Assembly: GCA_918292005.1 (NCBI GenBank)
Contig: CAKJZJ010000007.1
Span: 85,411-149,410, forward strand
Direction of reading: 5' to 3'
Origin: Clostridiales bacterium
GTDB lineage: Bacteria > Bacillota > Clostridia > Christensenellales > UBA1242
DNA length: 64,000 nt
Shown here: positions 1,767 to 37,198 of the stretch, piece after piece
How positions within the stretch are numbered: position 1 is the first letter of the stretch
How the letters are laid out: the number at the start of each line of letters is the position of its first letter
Program-made: the position numbers and the translations under genes
Notes under the pieces: generated by a model
The model's input: only the letters and a program-made list of their open reading frames with translations
The model's database searches: none
Told to the model about the DNA's origin: nothing

Positions 1767-4247
1767 TTAAGAATTTATTATAAATGCTGATTTTTTAGCA
1801 TTTTCATACAGAATATACAGGTTGTGTTTAGCCCTTGTTAAAGCTACATAATACAATCTCTCTTCATCTTCAATAGTGTCTAAAGTGGTGTGACCAAATA
1901 TTTCAAACAAATCATTATTAGAATTAAAAACCGGAAAAACACTTTCGTTGACATTCAATATTATAACCACATCTGCTTCTTCACCCTTTGCTTTATGTAC
2001 GGTCTTCATAAATACGTATTTGTTATATTCGTCTATTGAAACAAACTCTGAACATATTTTTCTAAGAGTTAAATTAAATTCATCTAATTCTTTACCAAGT
2101 ATTTGATTGCTACGGTTTAATATCATAATTTTTTCATTTTGATGTTTCTTTATTATATCAGCACACATTTTCAGGTATTTTGCTTTTTCTATTTTGTGGG
2201 GTTCTTCGTCTGTCAAATATTTTAAATAAACATTATTAACATCATCAAATTTACCTATGTATGTGTTTTGGACATCAATTTCTTTGCTTTCGCCTTTGTT
2301 AATTACTATTCCATTTGGTTTTGGACCTGTAAAGCCGCATTTGCTCATAAATTGATTTGCGAACCAGACTATGTGTTTTTCGCTCCTATAGTTATTCTTG
2401 ATACTCAACAAATTTGTATTTGAATATCTAACAGCAAAATTTGTGTAGTATTTTAAATCTGATCCAGCGAATCTATTTATTGCCTGCCAATCATCTCCGA
2501 CACAAAACAACTTGATATTATTGTTTCTATCTATTATTGAATCAATTAAATAATCAAATAATCTGCTGAAGTCCTGGTATTCATCTATAAGAATCCATTT
2601 TAAATTTTTTATTTTGTCATCCAGTTTTTTATCTTTTATTGCTTTACAGCATTCAAATATTATTTGATTAAAATCATATGCATAATCATTGTATGGTGTG
2701 TAATCGCCAGTATTGTCTGTTTTTGATAAAATTTCAATATACTTTTTATATACTATAAATCCTAATCTATAATACATTTTTGTTCTTTCGTCAGTTATAT
2801 CTTTTGCTTTTTCCACAAAAAGTTCAATGTTATCAAAGTAATTTTGTTGTAGTTTGTTTATAAACTGATCAATTAGTATTGTAAAACCATCTATACTTTT
2901 TGACCACACCTTGTCAATTAAAATATTGTCTGGCAGTTTATTTGCAAAAACATTATGATTATTTAATACGTGTTGTATTTTATCTTCAATAAGTTCGCGG
3001 CTGTCATCAGAGAGGTCTTTATGTGTAGTTTCTATTAATAATTTAACCTCTTTTATAGCTGTATTATATTTGTTAATATTAGCAAGTTTTTCTCTCCATG
3101 CTTTATTCCAAAATTTTTGTTTCCATTCTTTTTTATCAATATACTCTTGATATGGGCAAACAATTTTTGTAAATTCATCTTTTTCTTGTTGGTTTTCTGT
3201 TCCATCAACAGCCCAATGTTCCCAAACAATATTGTATTTTGGTAAATAAAAATCCGGCACAGTTTCTTTAAATTGATCTAAGAATTTAATGCATCTTTCC
3301 AGCTCGCTTTTTGTGAAATTTGCTTTTTCTAGACTAATTTTATACGGGTAATAGCTTTTTTCATATACATAATCTATACCATGTTCAAACAAATAGTCGG
3401 CTATATATTTTTCAATTTTTGATTTTACTTTTTCACCATTTAATGTAATATACTCACAATTTCTAATGTATTTATAGTATGATTCTGTGTCTACGAAATT
3501 TTTTCTATCTATTCTTAGTGTTGCTGCTCTAAAAAATTGATACATATTTCTTGCGAAATCTTGATTGGAAGTTCTCAAATCATTTATTATAAGTTTTAAC
3601 AACTTTGTTCTATCCGTTAATATTTTATTACCTATGTCAATTGACTGTTTAGAAAAAGAGTGGAAAGTTTTTGCAACATCAAAATCTTTGTATTTTAACT
3701 CATGATTGATTTCACATTTATTGTTTAATCTGTCGTTTATTTCTACACTAGCATCGTGGTTAAAGCAAAATGCTAAAACATTGTTGTCTTTTATTTTTTC
3801 TTTTTCAAACAAATAAATGAGTTTTCCAATTATGGTTCTTGTTTTACCAGAGCCGGCACGCGCTGTTGTTAATGAGTTTTGGGTAGATAATATGGCATTT
3901 AGTTGTTCATCATCAAAATAAAATGGTTGATTTTCATATAGCACATTATCAATGAAGAATTTACGTAGACTGCTTCTTTGTTCTTTTAATGGATCAATTT
4001 TAATTTGTGGCTCACTTATGGTTTTTTGTTTGTAGTTCGGAATTATTATTTTCCCATTTGTTATTGCATATTCTGCCATCCATAAGACTGGGCGTCCGAA
4101 CTTTGTAATTGTTTTGCCAGTTTTTTTATCTTTAGCATTAAAGTATGTTCCGTTATGATCAGAATGAACATTGTATAGAATAATTTCTTGCATGGTTTTA
4201 CCACCAGTATATATGGCACTCATTCCATCTTCTAGTTCTGTGTTCAT
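1767..4247 (-). CDS. UvrD/Rep-family SF1A helicase, helicase IV (HelD)-like, with an internal nuclease-like insert
   Basis: Motif I ARAGSGKTRT, motif II ILIDEYQDF, motif III VGDDWQAINRFAGS, NYRS, VHKAKGEEADVVII, YVALTRAKHNLYI. The insert reads KYIADYLFEHGIDYVYEKSY...VPDFYLPKYNIVWEHWA, as in helicase IV-type proteins. SD TAGGAGAAC precedes the ATG. Confidence 0.8.
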   Translation of the reverse strand: MNTELEDGMSAIYTGGKTMQEIILYNVHSDHNGTYFNAKDKKTGKTITKFGRPVLWMAEYAITNGKIIIPNYKQKTISEPQIKIDPLKEQRSSLRKFFIDNVLYENQPFYFDDEQLNAILSTQNSLTTARAGSGKTRTIIGKLIYLFEKEKIKDNNVLAFCFNHDASVEINDRLNNKCEINHELKYKDFDVAKTFHSFSKQSIDIGNKILTDRTKLLKLIINDLRTSNQDFARNMYQFFRAATLRIDRKNFVDTESYYKYIRNCEYITLNGEKVKSKIEKYIADYLFEHGIDYVYEKSYYPYKISLEKANFTKSELERCIKFLDQFKETVPDFYLPKYNIVWEHWAVDGTENQQEKDEFTKIVCPYQEYIDKKEWKQKFWNKAWREKLANINKYNTAIKEVKLLIETTHKDLSDDSRELIEDKIQHVLNNHNVFANKLPDNILIDKVWSKSIDGFTILIDQFINKLQQNYFDNIELFVEKAKDITDERTKMYYRLGFIVYKKYIEILSKTDNTGDYTPYNDYAYDFNQIIFECCKAIKDKKLDDKIKNLKWILIDEYQDFSRLFDYLIDSIIDRNNNIKLFCVGDDWQAINRFAGSDLKYYTNFAVRYSNTNLLSIKNNYRSEKHIVWFANQFMSKCGFTGPKPNGIVINKGESKEIDVQNTYIGKFDDVNNVYLKYLTDEEPHKIEKAKYLKMCADIIKKHQNEKIMILNRSNQILGKELDEFNLTLRKICSEFVSIDEYNKYVFMKTVHKAKGEEADVVIILNVNESVFPVFNSNNDLFEIFGHTTLDTIEDEERLYYVALTRAKHNLYILYENAKKSAFIINS

Positions 4248-4420
4248 TAGTTCTCCTAAATATTTATTACTTCAATTATATCTTATTTTAGTTCATTTGT
4301 ATATGCATTAAGACTAAATGTTGTTAATTTCTAAGCACTCGGAAGAGTGTTGTTTTGATATGACTTTATTTTTTATTGTGTTATAATGAAAATACATTAA
4401 AAATTTTCAGGGGTGCGATA

Positions 4421-4638
4421 GTGAAAAAGTGTCCTAAGATTGTTAGGGGAATTAAGAACAAAATGAAATGGTTGTATATAGTTCTGAAGAACTAAGAGAA
4501 AAGATAAAGCAAATTGGAACATTCGAAAGGTTCAATGGGGGAATATTCAAACAACTAGTAGAAAAGATACTAGTAGATGGAAACAAAGCAACATCTGTAT
4601 TCAATGATATGATAAAAGAAACAAAAATAGTAAAATAA
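4421..4638 (+). pseudogene. Frameshifted C-terminal remnant of a large serine recombinase
   Basis: Two short frames are present. The last reads YSSEELREKIKQIGTFERFNGGIFKQLVEKILVDGNKATSVFNDMIKETKIVK*, which resembles the extreme C-terminus of large serine recombinases. No catalytic domain is present. Confidence 0.4.
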
Positions 4639-4646
4639 AATTAATA

Positions 4647-4680
4647 ACCACTTATCATGAAAGATAGGTGGTCTTTTTTT
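4647..4680 (+). terminator. Intrinsic terminator after the recombinase remnant
   Basis: ACCACTTATC / GATAGGTGGT stem (one G-U pair) followed by a T-run. Confidence 0.6.
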
Positions 4681-4690
4681 GTTCTGCCAA

Positions 4691-4720
4691 CTTGACAATG
4701 GGGTTATATTATGTTATAAT
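4691..4720 (+). promoter_or_regulatory. Promoter P1 (TTGACA, 18 nt, TGT-TATAAT)
   Basis: Consensus -35 at 4691-4696. Extended -10 TGTTATAAT at 4712-4720. Confidence 0.6.
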
Positions 4721-4726
4721 AAACAT

Positions 4727-4825
4727 GTACGAATAAATGAATTGGAGTGTTAATCCCTTTCGTACAAATTTGGGTGGAGCTCTCCGAACTGGACTAGTTA
4801 ATAGTTCAGTTTTTTTATTTTTTTT
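4727..4825 (+). ncRNA. Predicted short transcript 1 (~100 nt), function unknown
   Basis: Starts ~7 nt after the P1 -10 with GTACGAA, which pairs with TTCGTAC (4759-4765). Ends in T7-A-T8 (4810-4825). No SD or credible ORF. Confidence 0.4.
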
Positions 4826-4836
4826 GACAAAACCAC

Positions 4837-4866
4837 TTGACAAACAATTTTTCACTATGTTATAGT
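4837..4866 (+). promoter_or_regulatory. Promoter P2 (TTGACA, 18 nt, TGT-TATAGT)
   Basis: Same architecture as P1. -35 at 4837-4842, extended -10 at 4858-4866. A second TTGACA sits at 4824-4829. Confidence 0.55.
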
Positions 4867-4872
4867 ACAGGC

Positions 4873-4945
4873 GTACGAAAGGGATCTAATTCATTTAGAT
4901 TGACACTCCAAAAAGGTCATGCAAATGGTCTGAGTAGGGTTTTTT
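4873..4945 (+). ncRNA. Predicted short transcript 2, or 5' leader of the downstream operon
   Basis: Begins GTACGAAAGGG. Hairpin ATCTAA-TTCAT-TTAGAT at 4884-4900. GGTCAT-GCAA-ATGGTC hairpin at 4915-4930, then T6 at 4940-4945. Confidence 0.35.
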
Positions 4946-5068
4946 CTGATACAGTTAAGTATCAACACTTGAGAAGGATTTTAACTTAATAATAATTAAT
5001 GCGCAGGTTAGAATTAGGTATTTTTTGCGTGGCTCTATAAAAATTTATATTTTTAAGGAGTTTTATTT

Positions 5069-5416
5069 ATGGCAAATTTTATTTATTCAAGAACAACAGA
5101 CAAAGACAAACAAACATTTTATTTGGTTAGCCAGGACAGAGAGTACTATCTTTTTACACAAAAATTTAGAAGAGGTGTAAAGGAATACTTTCATAACAAA
5201 GTTTTATTGAGAGATGCATTAGATGTATCTAAGAGTCGAAGAGATACAGCATTAATTAGAACAATGACCAAATTTCCTATGTATATAAGGTATATAGAGA
5301 AAGAATATGGTATTACGGTTCTAGAATCAACATTAAAGAAGCAATCTAAAACGAGAAACAACCCATGTGGCAGGTATGGGTTAATAAATGATTCTTGTGA
5401 TTATGCGGTTGCGTAA
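5069..5416 (+). CDS. Small basic protein (115 aa), no recognisable motif; first gene of the four-gene operon
   Basis: ORF with SD AAGGAG 8 nt upstream. K/R-rich. 11-nt gap to the next gene. Confidence 0.7.
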   Translation: MANFIYSRTTDKDKQTFYLVSQDREYYLFTQKFRRGVKEYFHNKVLLRDALDVSKSRRDTALIRTMTKFPMYIRYIEKEYGITVLESTLKKQSKTRNNPCGRYGLINDSCDYAVA

Positions 5417-5427
5417 AAGGAGTTAAA

Positions 5428-7938
5428 ATGAAAAATTTCAAATTAGGGTTTTATCCAGACATAAAAAATAAAGAGATGTTAGATTTGGTAAATGATGGCG
5501 AAGGTCATGATGTTTTATTATCAACTAATAGACTTAATATTGAATTCGATAATAGAGATCAAAGGCTTGTAAAAACAATAAAAGAAGTCAAACTTATTTA
5601 TGAATTAGAAGATAAAGGCTGTCTTATATTGCTCGGAAATTTGGGCTGTGATTTTCGACAACCAATGGGTGGTATGTTCTTTTGTAAAAGGGTATACATT
5701 GACCAAAATGTTGACTATCATGCAATAAAAGGCGTTGAAATGAATATCTGTTTTTCAAATTATCCACTTAGTATTGAAAGCACACAATCAGTACTTGCTA
5801 GATTAGTAGCAGATGAAAACTTTGAGTTTAACTTGTCTCAATTCGATGAGTTTATGGATATTTTCACATTTTATAAGAAATTATCTAGTGAATTAAACAA
5901 TAATACAGCATTTTCAATTAGGTCAATTTCAGATTCTTACTATTATGTTCCTGTAGACGTGAAAGACATTGACATTGATGAAGCAAACCAAATAACAAAC
6001 CTTAATGGAATTGTGACTGGTTATAAGATTGAAAGATATAAATACGACATGCTTTCAAGTGAAAACCAGGATAAAGTAAGAGAATTGGTTGATATAAAAA
6101 TAGAGGTGGGAGAAGAAGATGGAGATGCAGATAGAGCCATAAAAAAGGTAAAGAAATTTGCTGACAATCTATATCTTACACCAACTCAAGAAATTGATGA
6201 GAATATGACAAGAAATCTTGTTGGTTTTGATTTGGTCAATATTCAAAAAGATAAAACTGATGTGGTAGTATCTGGAGAAGCCAGTCTAAGAAAAGATGAA
6301 AAGTATAATTATTTAAACCTATATGATATGGGGCAGAAAGTAAAACTTGAATCAATAGATAATTCTTTAAGATTAATAAAGCAAGGTGCAGCAGGTTCGG
6401 CATGTGAATTGTTAGAATACATCATAGGCTCTAAACAAATGCCATCTAATAATTCAGCAAGACAAGATGGAGATAATAAAGATAATTATATAGAAAACTT
6501 GGATGAATCACAAAAGAAAGCATTCTTAATGGCAACAGATGGTTCACCAGTAAGTCTTATTAAAGGCCCACCAGGAACAGGAAAAACCTATGTAATCAAT
6601 GCAATTGTGCAATATATTACAAAGGAATTAAAACAAAAAGTTGTTATTTCTTCTCAAACACACGTTGCGATTGACAATGTCCTTGATGAGTTAATGGAGA
6701 ACTATGACCTTATTATTCCTAACAGAATAACAAATCGTAGAAACCGTTATTCAGGAGAGGAAATTGACTCAACATTGTATAAAACCTGGGCAAAGAAATT
6801 CGAAAGCCACAATCAAAGAGCAACTGATAAAAAGTTGGCAAAAGCCATTTTGGGAGATATGAGCAACTTTACAGGTAGTCAATTGTTTAGATTCTCTCAA
6901 GATACAACATTAGCAGATTACTCAGTTCTTGGAGCAACAACAACAACGAGTGCAATAGGTGGAAAAAAAGGACTTGAATTGCTAGAAGGATATGATTGGC
7001 TTATTATTGATGAAGTTTCAAAATGTCCTATAACAGAAGTATTAAGATATTTGCCTTATGTTGATAAGATAATAATGGTGGGAGATGACTTCCAGCTAGC
7101 ACCATTATTGGAATTTACTAAGGCAGATGTTGAAGGGTTACCATCATATGATGAAGATAAGTTTAACAAACTAGAATCAATCTATGAAAAATCAGTTTTT
7201 GCAAACACGCTAGAAAAAGCGAGGGAAGCTGGCAGAATGATTGAATTGAATGTTAACTATCGTTCAGTAAAAGCAGTTTTGAATGCTTATAACATTTTCT
7301 ATGATGGCAGATTGCAGAACATGAGAGAAATTGTAAAACCTACAAAAGTTCAATTTAATGATTTCAAAAAATATGAAGATAAAGATATTTTCTTTGTAGA
7401 AGTTAAGAATGGAAAAGAAGCTAAAGATGGAACATCAAGATACAATATTGAAGAGTTGGAAGCAACGGCTGACATATTGAAAGATTTGATGAAGACAGTA
7501 GAAAATCCAATTGGGGTAACGGTTTCAGCAATATTCCCATATGCGGCACAAATTGAAAAATTCCAAAAGAAATATAAAGAACTTATCAATGATGCTAAGA
7601 AACACTTTAAAAGTTTTGAAATTGATACAGTGGATGCATTCCAAGGGAAAGAAACAGACATTGTCTTAGTTAATACTGTTGTGACTATGGAAAAAGGGAA
7701 CTTCTTGAGTGAGTTTAGAAGAATCAATGTCTCAATGTCTAGAGCGAGAGATAAGTTGTTTATCTTTGGAAACTCAATAACATTAAGCAAAATTGAAATG
7801 AGAATCAATGGTGGAAATAAGAGAACTTATTTCAGAGAAATAATTGATGATATAAGAAGATTTGGCAAGATGATTGAATATAATGGAGGGTTAGAGTATG
7901 GTTCAAATAAATCTGAAATTAAGCTTAAGAAAGATTAA
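5428..7938 (+). CDS. SF1B Upf1/DNA2-like helicase (AAA_11/AAA_12 type) with a ~370-aa unassigned N-terminal region
   Basis: LIKGPPGTGKTYV, LIIDEVSKC, MVGDDFQLAPL, NYRS, VDAFQGKETDIVLV, NVSMSRARDKLFIFG. SD AAAGGAG upstream. Confidence 0.85.
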   Translation: MKNFKLGFYPDIKNKEMLDLVNDGEGHDVLLSTNRLNIEFDNRDQRLVKTIKEVKLIYELEDKGCLILLGNLGCDFRQPMGGMFFCKRVYIDQNVDYHAIKGVEMNICFSNYPLSIESTQSVLARLVADENFEFNLSQFDEFMDIFTFYKKLSSELNNNTAFSIRSISDSYYYVPVDVKDIDIDEANQITNLNGIVTGYKIERYKYDMLSSENQDKVRELVDIKIEVGEEDGDADRAIKKVKKFADNLYLTPTQEIDENMTRNLVGFDLVNIQKDKTDVVVSGEASLRKDEKYNYLNLYDMGQKVKLESIDNSLRLIKQGAAGSACELLEYIIGSKQMPSNNSARQDGDNKDNYIENLDESQKKAFLMATDGSPVSLIKGPPGTGKTYVINAIVQYITKELKQKVVISSQTHVAIDNVLDELMENYDLIIPNRITNRRNRYSGEEIDSTLYKTWAKKFESHNQRATDKKLAKAILGDMSNFTGSQLFRFSQDTTLADYSVLGATTTTSAIGGKKGLELLEGYDWLIIDEVSKCPITEVLRYLPYVDKIIMVGDDFQLAPLLEFTKADVEGLPSYDEDKFNKLESIYEKSVFANTLEKAREAGRMIELNVNYRSVKAVLNAYNIFYDGRLQNMREIVKPTKVQFNDFKKYEDKDIFFVEVKNGKEAKDGTSRYNIEELEATADILKDLMKTVENPIGVTVSAIFPYAAQIEKFQKKYKELINDAKKHFKSFEIDTVDAFQGKETDIVLVNTVVTMEKGNFLSEFRRINVSMSRARDKLFIFGNSITLSKIEMRINGGNKRTYFREIIDDIRRFGKMIEYNGGLEYGSNKSEIKLKKD

Positions 7939-9307
7939 GTATATAATTAAAGTGTCATATAACACTTTTGAAAAAGCGACATATGATCAATATTTAATGG
8001 CTAGCCTTGCATTAAGAAGCAAGGATGAACAAAGTGCTTACAAATATATTGATGACATAACGGGTTCGGGCAGTTTAAATGCACATTTTAAACAATTATA
8101 CGATAAAGCTCATAAACTTGATGAAAATCAGTTAAAAAATATCATGGGAAACTCAATGTATCCCATGCTTAAAATCGACAAAAGTAATTCTTATGATTAC
8201 TATCCAGAATTAAATGTTTCTGTATTTAACAATAAATTATATGAAGGAGATTTTGGCAAATATGAAGATTTGATACAAAGACTCTATATCCAAGAAGAAG
8301 TAATCGAATCAGAACTAATTGAGAAAAAGAATACTTCTCTTCCAGAACCATATTCAATTAGATTTGATGAAAGCAAGATTCTAGTAAAGATTGCAGAAGA
8401 ATGGGTAGATTTACCAGAAGAAATATTCCAAGAAGTATTTGAGAATAATTTAACTAGCATTGATAAGATTAAAAGTGAGATACATAATGTGGCAGATGGC
8501 AGTGGCTGGTTTGCACTCACAAATGCAGTAATTAACAATATGTATGCAAACAATAATTATTTCTACGATAATGGAGATCATTGTTTAATTAGAAACGATG
8601 ATGTAAGAAAAACAATTATTTCACAATTGGCAGGTTTCTATATTTACAAAGAAGAAATTATTCCATATGCAGGTAATAAAGATCTATGCGAAAAGGTATT
8701 GAATCTTCTATTAGAGAACAAATCAATCAATGAATTTAAAACAAGGTCAGTAATCACTTTATTAACTTATTCTGATGACTTACTTGCACAAAGTGTAATT
8801 AACTACATCTTGGCAAGAAAAGACTCAAAAGAATTGGCTTTAATGGGTATTGAATTACTTGTTAGGGGAATTGAAAAGAACTGGGAAAACGAAGCTTTGA
8901 AGAGTTTCATGATACATGCTGACAGTTCAAAATATAGTTATATCTATAAGGCAAATCCAAGACTTGTAACTGATATTCAAATGTTGTCAATGATAAATCC
9001 TGATTTCTTAACACCTACACACAGGAAAAAAGTGGAAGAGTATAAGAATAATAGACAGGCTATACGTGACAGCATTGACAAAATGGTTGGAGAAATCGCA
9101 ACAAGTGGAATGAGAGAAAGGGCAAAACAATTAAAGTCAACTGATAAAACTAAGAGATTCCATACATTGGTTAAAAGATATGATGCACATAGTAAAGTTG
9201 ACTATGAGCAAGCAACACTAAAAGAACTTGAAAAATATTTGAAAGAAGTTACCGAAATGTATGACCTTATGAAAGAGCTTCAAAAAGAAGTTAATAAAGA
9301 GAAATAA
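7898..9307 (+). CDS. Hypothetical 469-aa, mostly helical protein, no recognisable motif
   Basis: ORF with SD GGAGGG 7 nt upstream of ATG 7898. Overlaps the helicase gene by 41 nt. The C-terminal part is charged and coiled-coil-like. Confidence 0.7.
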   Translation: MVQINLKLSLRKIKYIIKVSYNTFEKATYDQYLMASLALRSKDEQSAYKYIDDITGSGSLNAHFKQLYDKAHKLDENQLKNIMGNSMYPMLKIDKSNSYDYYPELNVSVFNNKLYEGDFGKYEDLIQRLYIQEEVIESELIEKKNTSLPEPYSIRFDESKILVKIAEEWVDLPEEIFQEVFENNLTSIDKIKSEIHNVADGSGWFALTNAVINNMYANNNYFYDNGDHCLIRNDDVRKTIISQLAGFYIYKEEIIPYAGNKDLCEKVLNLLLENKSINEFKTRSVITLLTYSDDLLAQSVINYILARKDSKELALMGIELLVRGIEKNWENEALKSFMIHADSSKYSYIYKANPRLVTDIQMLSMINPDFLTPTHRKKVEEYKNNRQAIRDSIDKMVGEIATSGMRERAKQLKSTDKTKRFHTLVKRYDAHSKVDYEQATLKELEKYLKEVTEMYDLMKELQKEVNKEK

Positions 9308-9321
9308 GGGGGTTGGTGCTA

Positions 9322-10455
9322 ATGAAAAAGTATGTATTTTATGATTCTGAATCTATAGACATAAAACATAAATATTCTTTTACTTTTGGATATGTGGTTA
9401 CAGATGAAAAATTCAATGTAATAATGCCAAGAGAAGATATCGTGTTTAATCCTGATATACCAAAACAAGATTGGGATTGGTGGGCATATAGAAATATGTT
9501 AATAGAATCATATCCACAAAAACAAATATTGTCAGCAAAGACATTCCCACATTTTTACAAGAAAATAAGTAAATTATTTCAAGGGGATGATGTAATTTGT
9601 ATAGGCTTTGAAATTAATGAAGATGTAAAGTACCTTTTATCAAATTGCGAAAGGTACAACTTAGAGCCTATTAATTTCAAGTATGTTGATCTTAGAGAAA
9701 TACTGAGATACTTGACAGGAAAAAAACCTAATTCTTTGTCTTATGAATATATAAGATACTTGCATGTTCCAGATTATCGTGCTCACAGAAGTGATGTTGA
9801 TGCTGGAATGACGATGCTGGTATTGAAAGAAGCTTTGAGAAAAAGTAAAAAGACATTAGATGATATTCTTAAAGATAAAGAAGATTTGCTTGGCGAATGT
9901 AATGGTTTCTGTTATGGGTTCAAAAATAATATCTTTGACATAAAGAATCCAAGGGAATCAAGTCACGAGAATGTTGGAGGAATCAGAGCAAGAAAACTCA
10001 AGGAAGGCAAAGAAGATTGGATACTAAGAGGCTCAGTAAATAATATAATGTTTACTAGATTCCTTGACTATGTGCAACCAGTGAACGAAATAGAGCAATT
10101 TCTCAAAGGAAAGAAAGTGAACTTTAGTTTAAATTATGAAATGTATCATTATCAAAATATGTTGAAACTTATTCAGATTATAACCGATGCAGGTGGTACA
10201 TATGTGAAAAAAGGTAGTCTTGCAGACATCTTCGTAAAGAACTATGAAGAAAGTTTTGATGAAGAAGGAAACCCAAAACCATGCACTAGATACAATAATG
10301 TAATGAGAGCAATAGAACAAGATGGCAAGGGAATAGAGATACTTGAGTTCGATGAATTCTTGGCTATGTTTAATTTAGATAGAGAAAAGCTAGATGCAAT
10401 GCCACAACTTGATATTGAATACTTAAAAGAAAAAAAATACTTTAGGGCAGGTTAA
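9322..10455 (+). CDS. DEDDh (DnaQ-like) 3'-5' exonuclease with a C-terminal BRCT-like domain
   Basis: Exo I FYDSES, Exo II GFEINEDVKYL, Exo III AHRSDVDAG (H-x4-D). C-terminus GKKVNFS...IITDAGGTYVKKGSLADIFV...GIEILEFDEFL is BRCT-like. ATG 9322 is preferred over the track's TTG 9313 because of spacing from AAGGGGG. Confidence 0.75.
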   Translation: MKKYVFYDSESIDIKHKYSFTFGYVVTDEKFNVIMPREDIVFNPDIPKQDWDWWAYRNMLIESYPQKQILSAKTFPHFYKKISKLFQGDDVICIGFEINEDVKYLLSNCERYNLEPINFKYVDLREILRYLTGKKPNSLSYEYIRYLHVPDYRAHRSDVDAGMTMLVLKEALRKSKKTLDDILKDKEDLLGECNGFCYGFKNNIFDIKNPRESSHENVGGIRARKLKEGKEDWILRGSVNNIMFTRFLDYVQPVNEIEQFLKGKKVNFSLNYEMYHYQNMLKLIQIITDAGGTYVKKGSLADIFVKNYEESFDEEGNPKPCTRYNNVMRAIEQDGKGIEILEFDEFLAMFNLDREKLDAMPQLDIEYLKEKKYFRAG

Positions 10456-10613: not shown

Positions 10614-13496
10614 TTAATTATCCGTTCCCTTTAGCCAACCAAAGTCTTTTTGCGTTATACAATATTTTTTAAACACATTTGGAACTTTAAAAACATCTCC
10701 GACCATATATAATTCAAACTCAGCTGTAAAATGTTTATCGCCGATATCAAAAGTAAATGATTTTGGTTTATCGTTTTCTTCAAATAAAGATTGATATCCC
10801 TGAATTTTAAATTGGTAATCAGTATTTTGGAATCCTTTAGGATCAATAAAAATAATTTTGTATTTGTTATCAGTCTTTATCCAAAAAATGAAATCAGGAT
10901 AAAATTTATCATATTTGTTATTGCTTTCGTTAAAGTACCAAATAAAAATATTGTCCAGCGTTTGGTCTATTTTAGAAAACATCCATTCCTTTGATGTGTT
11001 TTTGGTTTTAATAAAATCATTTAGATTGTTTACAAAAATAATTTCGGATTCTACGTTTATTATATGTTTTAAATAATTTATTTTATCATTAACTGAAACG
11101 ATAATAGGCGAGTAGTAATGTTCTGCAATATTCAAAAATTCCACTTCATTTTTATAATGTATTTTTTCTTGTGTTTGAATTGAAGAAGAAATCTTTAAAA
11201 GTTCATCTAAATCAATTTTACCAGACTCATAGTCTTTTTTTGCTTGTTTTATAGGATCTGTTTTATTTTGCTGAGCTAAACTTATTAATTGTTGAATTTT
11301 TTTACACTCTTCTTCATTTAGCATTGCTTTTATATGTTTAAAATGAATTATATCGTCTTCGTTAATTAACCTAATTTTATCAACGACTCTTTCTTTTTTA
11401 TTTACATGTTCTACAAGCCTACACAGTGTGTTTTTTATATCTTTATAATTATGCTTATCAGTAATGTGGAATATAGACTTATCGATTAGAGCCTGTTTTA
11501 AGAATTCATAATCATCATTTGTTATCCTAAATAAAAGCATAAACAAAGTTTTATCATAAGCATTAAAATACTTTTTAATTTCTTCCAAACAATCTTCAGA
11601 TATAAAGAACTTAGCTTTTGTCCTTTGCTTTTCGTTTATTTTATAATCAGGTATAACCAAATCGAAAACTGTTTGATTTTTCTTTAATGGTTCTATAAAC
11701 AGTTCCTCATCATTTTTTTGTTCTGCCAGTGTGTCAAGAATTGATTTTACAGCCAACTTGTTTGTGGCGTAAATAAACAATGTTTCAAATAACTCATTTT
11801 TAAATGATTCATTATTTGCGGCTCTTTTTCTTTTGTTAATATTATCTGCTTCAGGTTGAATTCTTACACCTCTACCAATACTCTGCAAAACAAATTTTTT
11901 AGCATCACCAGAGCCAATATTGATAAAATTCATCACATTAGGTCGATTACTATCCCAACCTTCATAGAAAGCTCTACTTCCAAGTAATATATTAATTTTG
12001 CTATCTGGATTGTTAAGAGAATTAAAATAGTTAATTTTAGAATAATTTTTGCCTATAACATAACCATCGCTTAATTTATCTCTTCTAAATTTGTTTGCAT
12101 CACCAATTTTGATTAATAAAAATGGGGACTCTGATGTTTGTAATTGTAAGGCAATTTCTTTTGATGATTCACCCATTTTTATGTCTATTTTTCCATGAGT
12201 ATTTGAATTGAACACATAAAATAGAACATCTTTAATTGTGATTGAATCAATATAACTTTTATAATTTTTTTGTAACTTTTCTTTACCAATTGCAAATGGG
12301 GAACCAGCATACATTTCATTGCTTAATTCTTCCTTGGCACTTTCAAAAGATAAATTATCAACATCTCCAGTAGCAATTTTTTCTATTTCTTTAAAAAACA
12401 TGTAAAGATCAGAATCTTCTTCGTTAACTGTATCTACTAGAGTTACTATTAAAGGATTGTGATAGTATCCTTCCCTTTTAAACTTTTTAATTAATGTGCT
12501 TGTAATCAATGACTTTAGAACTTGCTTTTGTTTCGCAAGATCATTTAACTCATCTTTTTTATGGCTGAAAGTGAAATATGAATTGCTTACAAAAATATTC
12601 TTTCCATAACCATCCTCTATAAACTTTTCTAAATTGTAATTATAAACCGTTGTAACATAGTCAATTGAATCAGTAAAAGTTGCTGAAAAATTAAATAAAA
12701 ATCCATTTCTTGTCCATTGCGTTATATAGTTTTGACGCTTAGAATCACCACTTTTATCACCTTTATGTGCTTCATCTAAGAATACAAACCATTTACCATA
12801 GTTATCATAGGCATTTATGTTAATTTTTTTAGCTTTTTCTTCATCAGAAAGAAGATCGCTTCTATACGAAAATACATTAATTTCATCTAACAGAGTAAAA
12901 GCATTTTTTACTTCATCGAAATCTTTTAAACTGTGAATTCTTATTTGTCTATTTTTACCGTTGTTATATTTCCTAACAGCATTTTTAAATTGTGATTCTA
13001 TGCTTGCATCAGGGAATAATACCATAAATTCATTGTTTGGTATTAGCTTTGCTCTTTTTAAAGTATCTAATATTTCAATAAGTTTTATTAAAACAATAGT
13101 TTTTCCACTTGCAGTTGCCATCCAAAAGCAAGCTCTATTAAAAAGATTATAAGCATCAATAAATTTTTCATTTTCTTTTGTTTTAACATCATAGTACTGA
13201 CTTAAAATTTCAAATAGCTCATTTTTCTTTTTTCTTTCAAATTCATTAATATTATAATTGTTTTTATCCAACCCTAAAGCTACACATTTATCCATTAGTA
13301 ATTCTTTTGATTCTTTATTAGAGTAATACAAGTTTAACAGTTTTAGCACATTTTTTAATGCGTTAACTTGATAGGGGAATAACTCTTTGATTTCATTAGA
13401 AAAATCTACAATATTATCAATTCGCCACGATTGATCCATCGATTCATAATTTATATCATCAAGGAATGATTCATAATATATCTTCATACTATTCAC
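10614..13496 (-). CDS. res: Type III restriction enzyme Res subunit (SF2 helicase plus C-terminal PD-(D/E)xK nuclease)
   Basis: ATASGKT, FLDEAHKGD, SATF, QSIGRGVR. C-terminal YPDFIFW...IIFIDPKG. Start is GTG 13496 (overlapping the mod stop) or ATG 13487. Confidence 0.8.
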   Translation of the reverse strand: MNSMKIYYESFLDDINYESMDQSWRIDNIVDFSNEIKELFPYQVNALKNVLKLLNLYYSNKESKELLMDKCVALGLDKNNYNINEFERKKKNELFEILSQYYDVKTKENEKFIDAYNLFNRACFWMATASGKTIVLIKLIEILDTLKRAKLIPNNEFMVLFPDASIESQFKNAVRKYNNGKNRQIRIHSLKDFDEVKNAFTLLDEINVFSYRSDLLSDEEKAKKININAYDNYGKWFVFLDEAHKGDKSGDSKRQNYITQWTRNGFLFNFSATFTDSIDYVTTVYNYNLEKFIEDGYGKNIFVSNSYFTFSHKKDELNDLAKQKQVLKSLITSTLIKKFKREGYYHNPLIVTLVDTVNEEDSDLYMFFKEIEKIATGDVDNLSFESAKEELSNEMYAGSPFAIGKEKLQKNYKSYIDSITIKDVLFYVFNSNTHGKIDIKMGESSKEIALQLQTSESPFLLIKIGDANKFRRDKLSDGYVIGKNYSKINYFNSLNNPDSKINILLGSRAFYEGWDSNRPNVMNFINIGSGDAKKFVLQSIGRGVRIQPEADNINKRKRAANNESFKNELFETLFIYATNKLAVKSILDTLAEQKNDEELFIEPLKKNQTVFDLVIPDYKINEKQRTKAKFFISEDCLEEIKKYFNAYDKTLFMLLFRITNDDYEFLKQALIDKSIFHITDKHNYKDIKNTLCRLVEHVNKKERVVDKIRLINEDDIIHFKHIKAMLNEEECKKIQQLISLAQQNKTDPIKQAKKDYESGKIDLDELLKISSSIQTQEKIHYKNEVEFLNIAEHYYSPIIVSVNDKINYLKHIINVESEIIFVNNLNDFIKTKNTSKEWMFSKIDQTLDNIFIWYFNESNNKYDKFYPDFIFWIKTDNKYKIIFIDPKGFQNTDYQFKIQGYQSLFEENDKPKSFTFDIGDKHFTAEFELYMVGDVFKVPNVFKKYCITQKDFGWLKGTDN

Positions 13497-15960
13497 CCCA
13501 CCATAGTAGAGGTTTTAATATGTCAAAGAAATGTTGTTTTTCTTTGTCTGTCATATTTTGATAGTCATATTTTTCAATTATTTCTTTGTCTCCATCTCCT
13601 AAAACGACACTATCAGCCGTGATTTTTTTGATAGGTAATCCTAAGACATTTGAAATTGTTTCAGGCAAATCTATGTTTTTATATAGTTTATCTAATTCTA
13701 TTTTTATATCTCCGTTGTTTTCAACACTAAAATTGGAAGTTAGTTTTTTATCAGCAAAGAACGTGTACTGATCATAAATATTATCATTAAATAATGATGG
13801 TGAATTTGGTGAATAATTGGCATTTCTTAACGTATCTTCGTATTGTTCTAGTTCAAAATATTTAAAAAATCCACCCCCAGAAAATTTTGTAGGTACTGTT
13901 ATTCCACAAGGCTCATGTCTTCCAGTTTGAGAAATAACTTCTTTCATTCTTCCCAACAAACCAACTTTATTCACTTTGGCGATAATATATTTATCATTTT
14001 CTTCTTTTTCTATTACATCAAAATCTTTATATAAGTTAATTTGATTTGCAGGTGATTGTTTTAATTTAACTTCAGATATGTATGTATCATTAAAATGGTC
14101 ACCAAGTTCGACACCAATAAATTTTCTTCCCATTTTCTTTGCCACACAAATAGAAGTTCCACTTCCTGCGAAATAGTCTATAAAATATTTGTTTTCAGGA
14201 ATATTAACTAATGATTCTAATAAATGAATTAATCCTTCGGGCTTTTGAGAGTTGCTGAAAGAGAAAAATTCATCAGAAAGATTTAGTACCTTTCGGACAT
14301 TGTATTCGATGTTTGTGTTGGGATCTTTTATGACACCTTCAAAAACATCTCTAAGAAGAGTATCTGTATAATATCTACCTTCTGCATCTTTTTGCGCACC
14401 CATGAAAGATTTTTCCATATATTGTCTTTCTGTTATTGGATTTAATATGAATTTATCTTTGTTTTTTGAGTAAAACAAAATACTGTCATGTTTATAAGGC
14501 ATTGTTTTTGAGTCGGATGCACCACCAGATCTATAAGCCCAAGCAATATTGTTAATAAAGTTTTCTTTCCCAAAAATAGAATCTAATAATTCTCTACCTT
14601 TATGTTCTGCAAAATGATCCAAATGCATAAATATTGATCCCTCTGGATTTAATAAATTATAGGATAGATCCAATCTATCATACATTAGAGAAAGCCATGA
14701 GGAATCTTGATACGCATCAACATATTCGAAATCACTACCCGTATTAAAAGGTGGATCTATATATACTGAATAAATATTATTCTTAAACTTATTTGTTAAA
14801 CTATTTAAAGCTTGATAGTTTTCACTGTGTATTAATCTGCCATCTAAAGCATTATCTAAATTGTCAAAAATACTTAAAATTTCAATTTCTAAATCTTTAA
14901 AATATTTAGTATCAAAAGGTAAGTGCTTATATTTGTCATCATTTAAACTTTCAACAGAGAAATTATCTTCAACTAATTTTAATTTTTTCCATTCTTTTAT
15001 TTGATCTTCAAATCCAGTGTTTGCTTTTAGTTTTGAAATCAAGTCGGTTGTCAATTTATCTTTACTTATAACATAATTTGAATTTTTAACAAATTTTGGT
15101 TTATTCCAAATCCTAACCAATTCATCTTCAAACCCAGAAATGAACTGAATCAGTTTCTGTGCATATTTTTTTATTACTTTAATCTGGTCTAATCTTTTTT
15201 GGTCAAAAACATTTTCGTCTGCAAGAAGTATTTGATTCAAATATAGATCAAGCTGTTCGTTTAAAAATTGTTTTGCATTTTTATTAATAAAAAAGTCAAC
15301 ACTTGTTTGTTTTTCAAATTGACGAATTGCCTTACTAATAATATCTTCATTTACATTTAATTCTTTAGACAATTCTTCAACTTTTGTTTTTGATCTTGAT
15401 TCATAGTCAACAGATAGCACAAAAGTAACATCTCCACTTGTAGCATCATGTAAAGATGTTTTTGTTTTTAGTATTTCTTTTACAGTATATAAAAATCCTT
15501 TCTTTTCATTGTTTTGTTTTTGAGTTGCTTGAGTGGTATCAAACCTAAAAACATATGAAAGACCAGCATCTTTATCTTCAACTTTTATATCTGTAGTATT
15601 TAAAAGCTTGTCAGATTTTACATAATAAAGCATATTTGTCTTCCAAAATAGAACGACATCTTTATTATCCGTATATATTTTTTCATAAACTTTTTGCCAA
15701 TTTGCAGATTGGACAAAATAAATACTTCCTGACTCGCTAAAATATTTGTCAAAAAAGTTACAAAGTTTATCAAAAAACTCCTCTTTAAAGTTGGCATCAA
15801 TAATGCTATCGTGATCCACTTCATTTTTAAACTCGTCAATAACTGATTTGTAATATTTTTCTTTAATTCTTAACAGGTTAACAAATCCACCTTGTCCATC
15901 CATTTTTGCACCTTCAAAAATCCCCTTAAGTGCATTGTAAAAACGTTTTTCTTTTACCAT
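13489..15960 (-). CDS. mod: Type III-like N6-adenine/N4-cytosine DNA methyltransferase (beta class) with a long N-terminal extension
   Basis: Motif IV VYIDPPFNTGSDF precedes motif I DYFAGSGTS (beta-class order). SD AGGAGTG. Coupled to res. Confidence 0.8.
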   Translation of the reverse strand: MVKEKRFYNALKGIFEGAKMDGQGGFVNLLRIKEKYYKSVIDEFKNEVDHDSIIDANFKEEFFDKLCNFFDKYFSESGSIYFVQSANWQKVYEKIYTDNKDVVLFWKTNMLYYVKSDKLLNTTDIKVEDKDAGLSYVFRFDTTQATQKQNNEKKGFLYTVKEILKTKTSLHDATSGDVTFVLSVDYESRSKTKVEELSKELNVNEDIISKAIRQFEKQTSVDFFINKNAKQFLNEQLDLYLNQILLADENVFDQKRLDQIKVIKKYAQKLIQFISGFEDELVRIWNKPKFVKNSNYVISKDKLTTDLISKLKANTGFEDQIKEWKKLKLVEDNFSVESLNDDKYKHLPFDTKYFKDLEIEILSIFDNLDNALDGRLIHSENYQALNSLTNKFKNNIYSVYIDPPFNTGSDFEYVDAYQDSSWLSLMYDRLDLSYNLLNPEGSIFMHLDHFAEHKGRELLDSIFGKENFINNIAWAYRSGGASDSKTMPYKHDSILFYSKNKDKFILNPITERQYMEKSFMGAQKDAEGRYYTDTLLRDVFEGVIKDPNTNIEYNVRKVLNLSDEFFSFSNSQKPEGLIHLLESLVNIPENKYFIDYFAGSGTSICVAKKMGRKFIGVELGDHFNDTYISEVKLKQSPANQINLYKDFDVIEKEENDKYIIAKVNKVGLLGRMKEVISQTGRHEPCGITVPTKFSGGGFFKYFELEQYEDTLRNANYSPNSPSLFNDNIYDQYTFFADKKLTSNFSVENNGDIKIELDKLYKNIDLPETISNVLGLPIKKITADSVVLGDGDKEIIEKYDYQNMTDKEKQHFFDILKPLLWWGE

Positions 15961-35938: not shown

Positions 35939-36073
35939 TTATCCATATAGAGTGTGTTAGGGACAGCCCCGATGACCACACAGCAACCTGTCATATCGCA
36001 AGGTGCTAAAGGCTGATCGATGGAGATAATTAATTCTGTGAATATTATACCCATCGAGTGATGGGTATTTTTT
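35939..36073 (+). promoter_or_regulatory. SAM-I (S-box) riboswitch with terminator
   Basis: TTATCCATATAGAG...TTAGGGACAGCCCCGATGACC...GCAACC...GGTGCTAAAGG...GATGGAGATAA, then hairpin ATACCCATC-GAGT-GATGGGTAT plus a T-run. Sits directly upstream of metK. Confidence 0.85.
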
Positions 36074-36115: not shown

Positions 36116-37198
36116 ATGAAATTAATTACTAGTGAATCGGTGAATATTGGACATCCGGATAAAACGTGTGATGTGATAGCCGATGCGATTCTTGACGAAG
36201 CATTACGTCAAGATGCGAATGCACAGATGGCAGTGGAGTGTGCCATCAAAAATAATAAACTATTTATATATGGTGAAGCGACAACCACTGCATCTATTGA
36301 TTATGATAGGGTGGCACGAGATATCCTTAGAGATATAGGGTACACCTGTGACTTTACTATAGTCAAAGAGATTAGCCAGCAGAGTGTAGATATATCTAGT
36401 GCTGTGCATAAAGATAAATTGTCGGCAGGAGATCAGGGTATTATGTACGGCTATGCTACCGACGAGACACCAGAATACATGCCAACCCCTATTATTATTG
36501 CCCATGACCTAATGAGAGAATATGAGAAATTCCGTAAGACCAATAGTGGATATCATGCCGATGCCAAAAGTCAGGTAACTGTAGTATATGATGAAGACAC
36601 ACCTGTGGCTATTGATACAGTAGTTATTAGTGCATCTCATGATGAGAGTGTATCTATAGAGAAGCTACGTAAGACTATTATGGATAAGGTGATAAATAAA
36701 GTATTGCATAAATATAATTATCTAGATAGTTCTTGTACTAGATGTTTAGTCAATCCAGGTGGTAAATTTACTATATGGGGAAGTTTCGGTGATAGTGGCT
36801 GTGTAGGCAGAAAGATTGTTGTAGACACCTATGGTGGTGTGGGCAGAGTAGGTGGTGGCTGTTTTAGTTCCAAGAATGCTACCAAAGTGGATAGATCGGG
36901 TGCATATTATGCGAGATTCGTTGCCAAAAATATTGTTGCGCACAAATTGGCACACAAATGTGAAATACAGGTGTCTTATGCAATAGGTGTGGAGAATGCA
37001 GTTAGTGTCTACATAGATACATTTGGCACTAATATGGTAGATATGTCTGTGATATATAAATATGTGGACGACAATTTTAATTTTAGTCTCAGCAATATGA
37101 TTACTACACTGCATCTCAATGAGCCTATATTCAAACAAACTGCATGCTATGGGCATTTCGGTAGGAATGAGTTTAGCTGGGAAAAAATAATAAAATAG
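36116..37198 (+). CDS. metK: S-adenosylmethionine synthetase
   Basis: GHPDKTCD, GDQGIMYGYA, DAKSQVTV, GGGCFSSKNATKVDRSGAYYAR. Confidence 0.9.
   Translation: MKLITSESVNIGHPDKTCDVIADAILDEALRQDANAQMAVECAIKNNKLFIYGEATTTASIDYDRVARDILRDIGYTCDFTIVKEISQQSVDISSAVHKDKLSAGDQGIMYGYATDETPEYMPTPIIIAHDLMREYEKFRKTNSGYHADAKSQVTVVYDEDTPVAIDTVVISASHDESVSIEKLRKTIMDKVINKVLHKYNYLDSSCTRCLVNPGGKFTIWGSFGDSGCVGRKIVVDTYGGVGRVGGGCFSSKNATKVDRSGAYYARFVAKNIVAHKLAHKCEIQVSYAIGVENAVSVYIDTFGTNMVDMSVIYKYVDDNFNFSLSNMITTLHLNEPIFKQTACYGHFGRNEFSWEKIIK

Follow-up and report, generated by a model that had tools for sequence, protein, structure and literature searches.

A predicted small RNA and the cognate leader of a putative anti-phage operon in uncultured gut Clostridia

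Introduction

Two described base-pairing systems, RoxS-yflS of Bacillus subtilis, with which FasX-ska of Streptococcus pyogenes can be grouped, and par of pAD1, together with further type I antitoxin sRNAs encoded beside their targets, are close to the element treated here, a pair of RNA units encoded in tandem ahead of a four-gene operon. The pair lies in a 64 kb stretch of the Clostridiales bacterium contig CAKJZJ010000007.1 (this whole stretch is called the window; all coordinates are positions in it and all RNA parts are on the + strand). Unit 1 (4727 to ~4820) is a predicted RNA of ~90-100 nucleotides (nt), and unit 2 (4873-4945) is the first ~70 nt of the operon leader (4873-5068, ~196 nt), which runs from the second of two promoters, P2, to the first gene, g1. 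From sequence comparison, the element is best described as base-pairing RNA control, in which a dedicated small RNA (sRNA) stands in tandem with its cognate leader and the two together head a putative anti-phage operon. The YUNR motif, which the leader carries, marks recognition loops in antisense RNA systems generally. In another family of systems, the countertranscript attenuation of Gram-positive bacteria (pT181, pIP501, pAMbeta1), a small abundant RNA binds the nascent leader and alters the hairpins downstream.

In RoxS-yflS, pairing of the sRNA to the first nucleotide (+1) of the target blocks the 5'-to-3' exonuclease RNase J1 and raises ribosome binding (PMC5419742). Similarly, a C-rich stretch of the present sRNA (AUCCCUUUC) pairs with a G-rich 5' end from the predicted +1, and the duplex typical of RoxS, one that includes nt 1 of the mRNA, is found at the predicted start. 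RoxS, however, is global, encoded elsewhere and transcriptionally regulated, whereas the present sRNA lies just upstream of an apparently single target, on the same strand and behind a promoter that looks constitutive. The predicted pairing is also much longer than in RoxS-yflS, with ~30 base pairs (bp) in three helices, among them a loop-loop contact.

In par of pAD1 (RNA I / RNA II, Fst), a kissing contact through a U-turn, for which a YUNR recognition loop has been described, is followed by spread of the pairing to dispersed repeats (PMC7472228). Our locus resembles par in having an sRNA beside a single target, dispersed complementary blocks and a YUNR U-turn loop as the presumed first contact; the 5'-end helices, which in par serve RNA stability (PMC7472228), are a further likeness. 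Unlike the RNAs of par, which are convergent and share a bidirectional terminator, the two units stand in tandem on one strand. The pairing, which in par lies over the start codon and the Shine-Dalgarno (SD) sequence of a 33 amino acid (aa) membrane toxin, here ends ~150 nt upstream, and the target opens with a 115 aa soluble protein of a four-gene operon.

Other classes of RNA element were rejected. A type I toxin-antitoxin would need a hydrophobic toxin of <~60 aa; there is none, the product of g1 being hydrophilic and 115 aa long, and the leader holds no small conserved open reading frame (ORF). Type I pairing is placed at or near the translation start or a standby site; here it involves leader nt 1-39, with the SD at ~nt 184, a position that may or may not allow a standby-site role. 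As in countertranscript attenuation, the leader holds an AU-rich hairpin and a U-run (4984-5026), but the regulators of that mechanism are true antisense RNAs of the leader, while both units are here in tandem on the + strand. No alternative pairing that would link the sRNA site to the terminator-like hairpin was found in the leader. Against a type III toxin-antitoxin (ToxI), the direct repeats amount to the duplicated promoter and start region only, and no ToxN or AbiQ family was found; against a retron or DRT non-coding RNA, no reverse transcriptase domain was matched in the operon or in flanking proteins; and against a riboswitch, T-box or other cis-acting leader, there is no Rfam match and the partner of the leader 5' end sits in a separately promoted and terminated unit. 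A different kind of likeness is with protein modules (the CARF-like and sigma-like pair of sister operons described below, and sigma signalling of the CalpL/T/S type), which occupy the same place at the operon head and presumably perform the same task, that of setting how strongly the operon is expressed; they act on transcription initiation, while the RNA module would act after it. Neither the RNAs nor the operon turned up in literature searches. The conserved matching of the two RNAs points to a previously undescribed RNA switch.

Results

Predicted base pairing between the two units

The original prediction, made from the letters of the window, held that the units share three antiparallel matches, and all three are present. 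Helix A:A' joins 4753-4765 with 4873-4885 (13 nt, 100% complementary), helix B:B' joins 4735-4743 with 4888-4896 (9 nt) and helix C:C' joins 4742-4750 with 4903-4911 (9 nt); the A arms of the two units are 107 nt apart on the same strand. The 9 nt blocks had also been predicted to stand in permuted order, and in the window they do. In the homologous locus L006, A' and C' are contiguous (it has no B' hairpin) and make a plain 24 nt antisense match, so the permuted order of the window amounts to a plain antisense match with an inserted hairpin. In all loci A' begins at the equivalent of G4873, the predicted first nucleotide of the leader.

The original prediction also called for covariation of these blocks in homologous loci, and this is what we found. 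Twenty-nine inter-unit pairs were followed through 16 distinct homologous sequences, with 500 shuffles and with partners slid by 1-3 columns as controls. Standard pairing was preserved in 98.5% of the cells. Five pairs had been altered on both sides and were still paired, a result matched by 0/500 shuffles, and sliding the partner brought pairing down to 33-49%. Block A':A is 100% paired with three positions changed two-sidedly, and block C':C is 98.6% paired, with three G-U pairs and one replacement of U-A by C-G (in L055, where UUGGAG of block C became UCGGAG and CUCCAA of C' became CUCCGA). In block B, four sequences (L007, L045, L048 and L051) have G replaced by A together with C replaced by U in the B' loop, that is, G-C turned into A-U. 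The motif found at both predicted starts, and in complement in the 3' arm of unit 1, co-changes in its three copies in L048 (GCACGAA / UUCGUGC / GCACGAA) and in L006 (GUUCGAA / UUCGAAC / GUUCGAA), and the latter locus also pairs AUCCUUUU with AAAAGGAU. An additional G at the leader 5' end of L051 is answered by an additional C in unit 1, which makes the helix one G-C pair longer. In L046 the 5' arm of the sRNA reads GUGCGGA and pairs with UUCGUAC through two G-U, while the leader 5' end is fully complementary to the 3' arm. The G-U pairs found in helix C and in the GNRA hairpin of the leader exist neither at the DNA level nor in transcripts of the other strand, only in RNA of the + strand.

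The complementarity also exceeds chance expectation. The co-folding that the original prediction proposed gave a gain of -19.1 kcal/mol with a short leader and -22.9 with the full leader, compared with -6.4 +/- 3.0 for shuffled versions of unit 1. Besides the leader, a scan of the 64 kb window detected no other stretch complementary to unit 1 over more than ~10 nt. It had further been claimed that the 3' arm of unit 1 pairs better with the leader than with its own 5' arm. The numbers stand (13 bp against 7 bp), but the hairpin within unit 1 covaries as well, so both partners of the 3' arm are genuine alternatives. The comparison shows a conserved predicted pairing between sRNA and leader, with ~30 covarying bp, that competes with one stem in each RNA. 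The trans-acting sRNA remodelling the operon leader, as originally proposed, is supported as far as a comparison of sequences (pairing and covariation) reaches.

Promoters P1 and P2

Both units are preceded by what appears to be a nearly perfect promoter. P1 (4692-4720) has TTGACA at 4692-4697 and TATAAT at 4715-4720, separated by a 17 nt spacer whose last letters are TGt, and reaches a consensus score of 12/12. P2 (4837-4866) has TTGACA (4837-4842), an 18 nt spacer, again with TGt, and TATAGT (4861-4866), scoring 11/12. The tandem consensus promoters of the original prediction were thus recovered, save that the P1 spacer, given there as 18 nt, counts 17. TTGACA occurs together with a -10 hexamer of 5/6 matches or better at just five sites in the window, and P1 and P2 are the only ones among them with the TGn extension. 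GTACGAA starts 7 nt past either -10 hexamer, at 4727 and 4873 (6-7 nt had been predicted), and the distance between the two predicted starts is 146 nt.

The promoters are conserved among related loci. The -35 hexamer of P1 is invariant across 17 loci, with a spacer of 17-18 nt in most of them (19 in L046, a doubtful call), and TGn is retained in all of them but L046, although the spacer sequences diverge. The TTGACA of P2 is likewise invariant (16/16 aligned sequences), and both promoters and the start-to-start distance are kept in 17 loci despite unlike spacers. The alignments show free variation in the spacers and in much of the downstream leader, against near-invariance of the -35 hexamers, TGn, the spacing to the first G and the transcribed cores, as would be expected of two real promoters driving RNAs whose sequence matters.

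The surroundings of the promoters hold some further signals. An extra TTGACA (4824-4829) begins within the last letters of the unit 1 T-run and 13 nt before the start of the P2 -35 hexamer; it is present in the window alone and has no counterpart in the relatives. Upstream of P1 there are a promoter-like site with TG (4360-4387), a 56 aa ORF (4468-4638, no family) and a terminator (4647-4672). The terminator sequence is common to the window, L041 and L044 and to no other loci, which leaves it outside the conserved cassette.

The predicted sRNA

Unit 1 is best read as a dedicated trans-acting small RNA, transcribed from P1 with G4727 as first nucleotide and ended by its own terminator, in the T-runs at 4810-4825. 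At the level of sequence it has both a promoter and an intrinsic terminator of its own. It is also nearly invariant across loci in which the g1 protein ranges from 56 to 95% identity. The 5' hairpin (4727-4765) pairs GUACGAA (4727-4733) with UUCGUAC (4759-4765) around a 25 nt loop, in which blocks B (4735-4743) and C (4742-4750) lie together with the 5' half of A (4753-4758). It is paired in 100% of the cells, with two compensatory pairs (L006, L048) and two G-U pairs (L046). The T7-A-T8 end that had been predicted is found behind a canonical stem (4786-4812, 11 bp), the whole terminator spanning 4786-4825 with T7 at 4810-4816, one A, and T8 at 4818-4825. The 8 pairs of its core (4789-4796 with 4802-4809) are 100% paired, G-U is replaced by A-U in six sequences, and the stem of L046 is longer by two base pairs.

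Between hairpin and terminator lies an invariant stretch, GGGUGGAGCUCUCC (4772-4785), that takes no part in the inter-unit pairing. RNAalifold pairs it within unit 1, where its GGG joins CCC 4755-4757 and its CUCC joins GGAG 4744-4747. Variation in these pairs goes to G-U only, and none has two-sided changes. The resulting fold is 2.7 kcal/mol better in a model restricted to nested pairs and crosses the 5' hairpin, so that unit 1 is, by these models, either pseudoknotted or switching between two folds.

The only ORF of unit 1 (4737-4865) has lost its ATG in five lineages (L006, L007, L045, L048, L051); a small protein was therefore discarded and unit 1 is taken as non-coding, in line with the claim that it holds no credible ORF. 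The Rfam search suggested with the original prediction gave no family: at gathering thresholds, none of the Rfam 15 families matched 4600-5100, and at permissive thresholds the best E-value was 0.54, with every score far under gathering. The unit 1 core, searched as a DNA pattern, matched six metagenome contigs and was not found in viral contigs, and the 461 nt region gave no DNA match among phage or plasmid records.

The operon leader

The leader as a whole has a conserved, covarying architecture of several hairpins. It opens with block A' (GUACGAAAGGGAU, 4873-4885, leader nt 1-13), the partner of unit 1 4753-4765; this 13 nt segment is in none of the conserved leader stems, in contrast to the sRNA, which opens with a hairpin at nucleotide 1. 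The B' hairpin follows (4884-4900; AUCUAA, loop UUCAU, UUAGAU), with a stem paired in 96% of cells and a compensatory pair. Block B of unit 1 has its complement in the loop and closing pairs of this hairpin (4888-4896), and the YUNR motif of the loop is present in every variant (UUCAU, UUUAU, UUCAAG, UUUUCAU). Block C' (ACACUCCAA, 4903-4911) is the partner of unit 1 4742-4750. Within the leader, its ACUC pairs with GAGU 4932-4935 in an invariant 4 bp stem that closes the GNRA hairpin (4914-4939; AGGUCAU-GNRA-AUGGUCU, then GAGUAGG(G)). This hairpin is 100% paired and invariant, its loop stays within GNRA (GCAA, GUAA, GGAA, GCGA), and its two G-U pairs are possible only for the + strand.

Apart from 4772-4785 in unit 1, the stretch 4910-4938 (AAAAAGGUCAU-GNRA-AUGGUCUGAGUAGG) is invariant across all loci without inter-unit pairing. 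Conservation of this kind points to a bound protein or to a tertiary contact, for instance with a GNRA receptor.

Downstream, a U-run (T6 in the DNA, 4940-4945) starts the remaining leader (4940-5068). Unit 2 had been predicted as a short RNA with two hairpins, one with a GCAA tetraloop, and a T6 run. The hairpins and the loop are there, but the separate terminated RNA is not: the stem before the T6 run has only 4 bp and is 3-4 nt away, L006 has no U-run at this place, and a T6 run without a terminator-grade stem makes unit 2 the 5' part of the operon leader. By eye, in several loci the U-run can lengthen the next hairpin, P3 (4948-4963, 98% paired, three compensatory pairs), since an A-run beyond P3 offers it a partner. 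P3 is followed by the conserved motif GAAGGAUUUUAACUUAAU (4973-4990), then a long AU-rich hairpin (4984-5019, 86% paired, two compensatory pairs) with U6 at 5021-5026 and, in individual folds, a local hairpin over the SD (AGGAG, 5056-5060).

Two features of this lower part deserve mention. The AU-rich hairpin and U6 (4984-5026) lie ~40 nt ahead of the ribosome-binding site, are kept in most leaders and could be an attenuator. A motif GA(A)GGAUUU(U)AACUUAAU, located before the AU-rich hairpin and overlapping it, is partly like A' and might be a second sRNA site.

Distribution and sister operons

Relatives of g1 numbered 33 in the protein collection and 38 loci in species-representative genomes, mostly metagenome-assembled genomes of gut or rumen members of the class Clostridia, with a few from other phyla. 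With loci gathered from these genomes, from the six metagenome contigs recovered by the unit 1 pattern and from contig look-ups, both units were found in 19 loci besides the window, all from gut or rumen Clostridia, and three more are cut by contig ends. In the unit-bearing loci g1 is 56-95% identical to that of the window, and a helicase gene directly follows it wherever the contig is long enough. The DNA upstream of P1 is unlike between most loci, which indicates that the conserved cassette begins at the P1 -35 hexamer.

Covariance models of the two units had no match in the other 33 loci, and the model of unit 1, R1, is limited to the clade of the window. According to the original prediction, homologous operons lacking the element would speak against it. 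Such operons do exist, but they limit the element to one clade and do not refute it. In six loci devoid of the units, the same helicase (60-65% identical) and g3 are kept, in the order g1, sometimes an exonuclease, a CARF-like protein, a sigma-like protein, helicase and g3. The CARF-like protein (~205-225 aa) has a weak hit to TIGR02221 (E = 1e-8) and the sigma-like one (~290 aa) weak hits to sigma-70. The trio of g1, CARF-like and sigma-like genes also precedes a TerY-P triad (VWA, PP2C and kinase), identified with Pfam in L012 only; L008 and L009 have the same run of ORF sizes, and L017 and L018 agree as far as they were read.

The loci with CARF-like and sigma-like genes (L008, L009, L012, L015, L017, L018, L024, L028-L033) share a motif exclusive to them upstream of g1, aaaa(T/G)GTTAAG-N17-(C/T)CTATA, mostly at ~60-80 nt (range ~60-150) and twice in tandem in L028-L030. 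The sigma-like protein of the operon itself probably uses this motif as its promoter. Since sister clades have a protein module for transcription at the very position of the RNA pair, the RNAs would be a control and not an effector, and the pair seems to be another way of controlling the same defence operon.

Discussion

A proposed mechanism

The explanation that we prefer, to which we give a probability of about 0.7, is that the sRNA captures and remodels the 5' end of the leader and in this way settles what becomes of the operon mRNA. With its loop and 3' arm (4735-4765), the sRNA hairpin can pair with leader nt 1-39 through the three helices. B:B' would form first, as a kissing contact between the sRNA loop and the leader loop that contains YUNR. 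The other two would follow: A:A', with 13 bp up to leader nt 1 that oust the 7 bp stem of the sRNA, and C:C', whose 9 bp would remove ACACUCCAA from the ACUC/GAGU stem closing the GNRA hairpin. The pairing would set the fate of the mRNA after its transcription.

In which direction is a matter of analogy and models, on which we lean slightly towards activation, with repression almost as likely. Activation is put forward tentatively: the mRNA, its 5' end now double-stranded, would be protected against 5'-to-3' decay, and capture of CUCC would loosen the sequestration of the ribosome-binding site. We lean this way because pairing to +1 is conserved, and co-extended in L051, as RoxS shields yflS; because the 5' 13 nt of the leader are outside stems while the sRNA starts with a hairpin at nt 1; and because blocking nt 1-39 raises the predicted exposure of the SD, whose accessibility goes up in 14/14 loci, negligibly in three of them. 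Repression would go through RNase III cleavage of the ~22 bp of stacked duplex. A more ambitious proposal, which we regard as speculative and unlikely, is an RNA-only infection switch in place of the CARF-like/sigma-like sensor. A phage would disturb RNA synthesis or decay in the host and so upset the balance or pairing of the two RNAs, both made constitutively, or the UPF1-like helicase of the operon would act on the duplex, and an mRNA until then stored, silent or unstable would be released into expression, yielding a burst of defence proteins.

Several points weigh against the preferred explanation or parts of it. The diversity of the loci is low and many pairs are invariant, so that the covariation signal comes from five positions in about five lineages. 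The start sites, the 3' end and the abundance of the RNAs are read from the DNA, and both promoters look constitutive. The paired region is at least 150 nt upstream of the ribosome-binding site, and no direct effect on translation is evident. In the model, the SD accessibility of the window itself has practically no change (0.21 to 0.23). RNAalifold and partition functions permit pairing of C' (ACUCC) as an anti-SD strand, a role that is a possibility only, and the matching of C' to the SD across loci is not significant by permutation (p = 0.06). Finally, simple base-pairing control does not account for the invariant stretches at 4772-4785 and 4910-4938.

Alternative explanations

The same helices could serve an antitoxin-like repressor, with the duplex (A:A' and C:C' stacked, ~22 bp, or the contiguous 24 bp of L006) cut by RNase III or the leader locked in an inactive form. 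A potentially harmful defence operon would thereby stay silent as long as the sRNA lasts, and would be freed once the sRNA runs out, as might happen if a phage stops transcription in the host; the trans-encoded type I antitoxins, such as IstR-1 with tisB and RNA II with RNA I of par, would be the comparison. IstR-1 reportedly pairs with tisB a long way ahead of its ribosome-binding site. Pairing geometry and covariation are identical to those of the explanation we prefer, a consensus promoter would put the sRNA in molar excess, defence operons are commonly held low, and a YUNR loop with pairing in several blocks is also the arrangement of par of pAD1, where it is repressive (PMC7472228). We nevertheless consider this repressor rather unlikely, given that g1 codes for a hydrophilic protein of 115 aa and not for a small membrane toxin, that RNase III needs no pairing to the exact first nucleotide, which is conserved and co-extended in L051, and that thermodynamic models give more SD exposure upon binding, not less. 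A role of the RNAs as parts or sensors of the defence itself is less probable still. For instance, the duplex or the GNRA hairpin could be a substrate that the UPF1-like helicase or g1 binds or unwinds, so that disturbed RNA metabolism in infection would be read out directly. The helicase, g2, is indeed of the UPF1/SEN1 RNA-helicase type, and the invariant stretches without inter-unit pairing (4772-4785, 4910-4938 and the GNRA loop) hint at protein or tertiary contacts; but the argument for protein binding comes from conservation, and operons with a 60-65% identical helicase and g3 work without the RNAs and carry the CARF-like/sigma-like module.

Action in cis would make use of read-through transcripts from P1 that hold both units, giving two mRNA isoforms that differ in stability or translation with no sRNA acting in trans. 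As the units are on one strand with their A arms 107 nt apart, intramolecular folding would use the same helices and produce the same covariation. Still, the strong and strictly conserved terminator (11 bp stem, T7-A-T8) should stop most P1 transcripts, and a conserved consensus P2 directly downstream makes little sense if the read-through product is the functional mRNA, all of which renders this explanation very improbable. The last alternative dispenses with RNA pairing and takes GTACGAA / TTCGTAC / GTACGAA as half-sites for a repressor of both promoters. GTACGAA is equidistant from both -10 hexamers, and the three copies co-change in L006 and L048, as DNA operators might. Yet the first copy in L046, GTGCGGA, pairs through G-U only and hence as RNA only; the complementarity (13 + 9 + 9 nt) goes well past the 7-mer and includes compensatory changes beyond it; conservation covers the whole ~90 nt of unit 1, terminator included; and family searches found no DNA-binding domain in the proteins of the operon. 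DNA operators are, with these data, hardly credible.

The operon and its genomic surroundings

The operon under the leader (g1-g4, 5069-10455, + strand) keeps its gene order in L001-L007. The product of g1 (5069-5416, 115 aa) belongs to no family of Pfam, NCBIfam or PADLOC and is predicted to be a soluble alpha/beta fold (AlphaFold pLDDT 80); its model had no match in the PDB (best E-value 0.85). The second gene, g2 (5428-7938), codes for a superfamily 1 helicase, UPF1/SEN1-like (Pfam AAA_11/AAA_12; PADLOC MkoA, E = 1e-79), whose closest solved structures are UPF1, SEN1 and SMUBP2. It is followed by g3 (7898-9307), of no family and not found in plasmids or phages, and by g4 (9313-10455), a weak DEDDh/epsilon-like exonuclease. 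Neither g3 nor g4 has sequence relatives among solved structures.

On the - strand, a UvrD/GajB-like helicase (1767-4247), in whose vicinity no GajA partner was seen, lies upstream, and a type III restriction-modification system (Res 10614-13496, Mod 13489-15960) lies downstream. With these flanks, the element heads an operon in a defence island, and the operon, itself uncharacterised, is likely anti-phage.

Two other observations concern the wider context. The gene g1 heads many unlike operons, including one with a Metallophos and SbcC-like pair in L049, and may code for an unnamed adaptor or regulator that is widespread among defence operons. The sole Rfam match in the window is a SAM-I riboswitch (RF00162, 51.9 bits) at 35940-36026 (+ strand), upstream of the ORF 36116-37198.

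Biological meaning

The two units add a new and well-conserved pair of RNA families from uncultured gut Clostridia, with a design that is compact and clear: two promoters, one terminator and ~30 covarying base pairs. If the proposed role is true, an RNA-based device would join the controls on anti-phage operons, of which the known ones are mostly repressor proteins or dedicated sigma factors. The CARF-like/sigma-like module found at the same position in the sister operons offers a natural comparison between protein and RNA control of the same genes, and may help to reveal the signal sensed by this uncharacterised helicase-exonuclease system.

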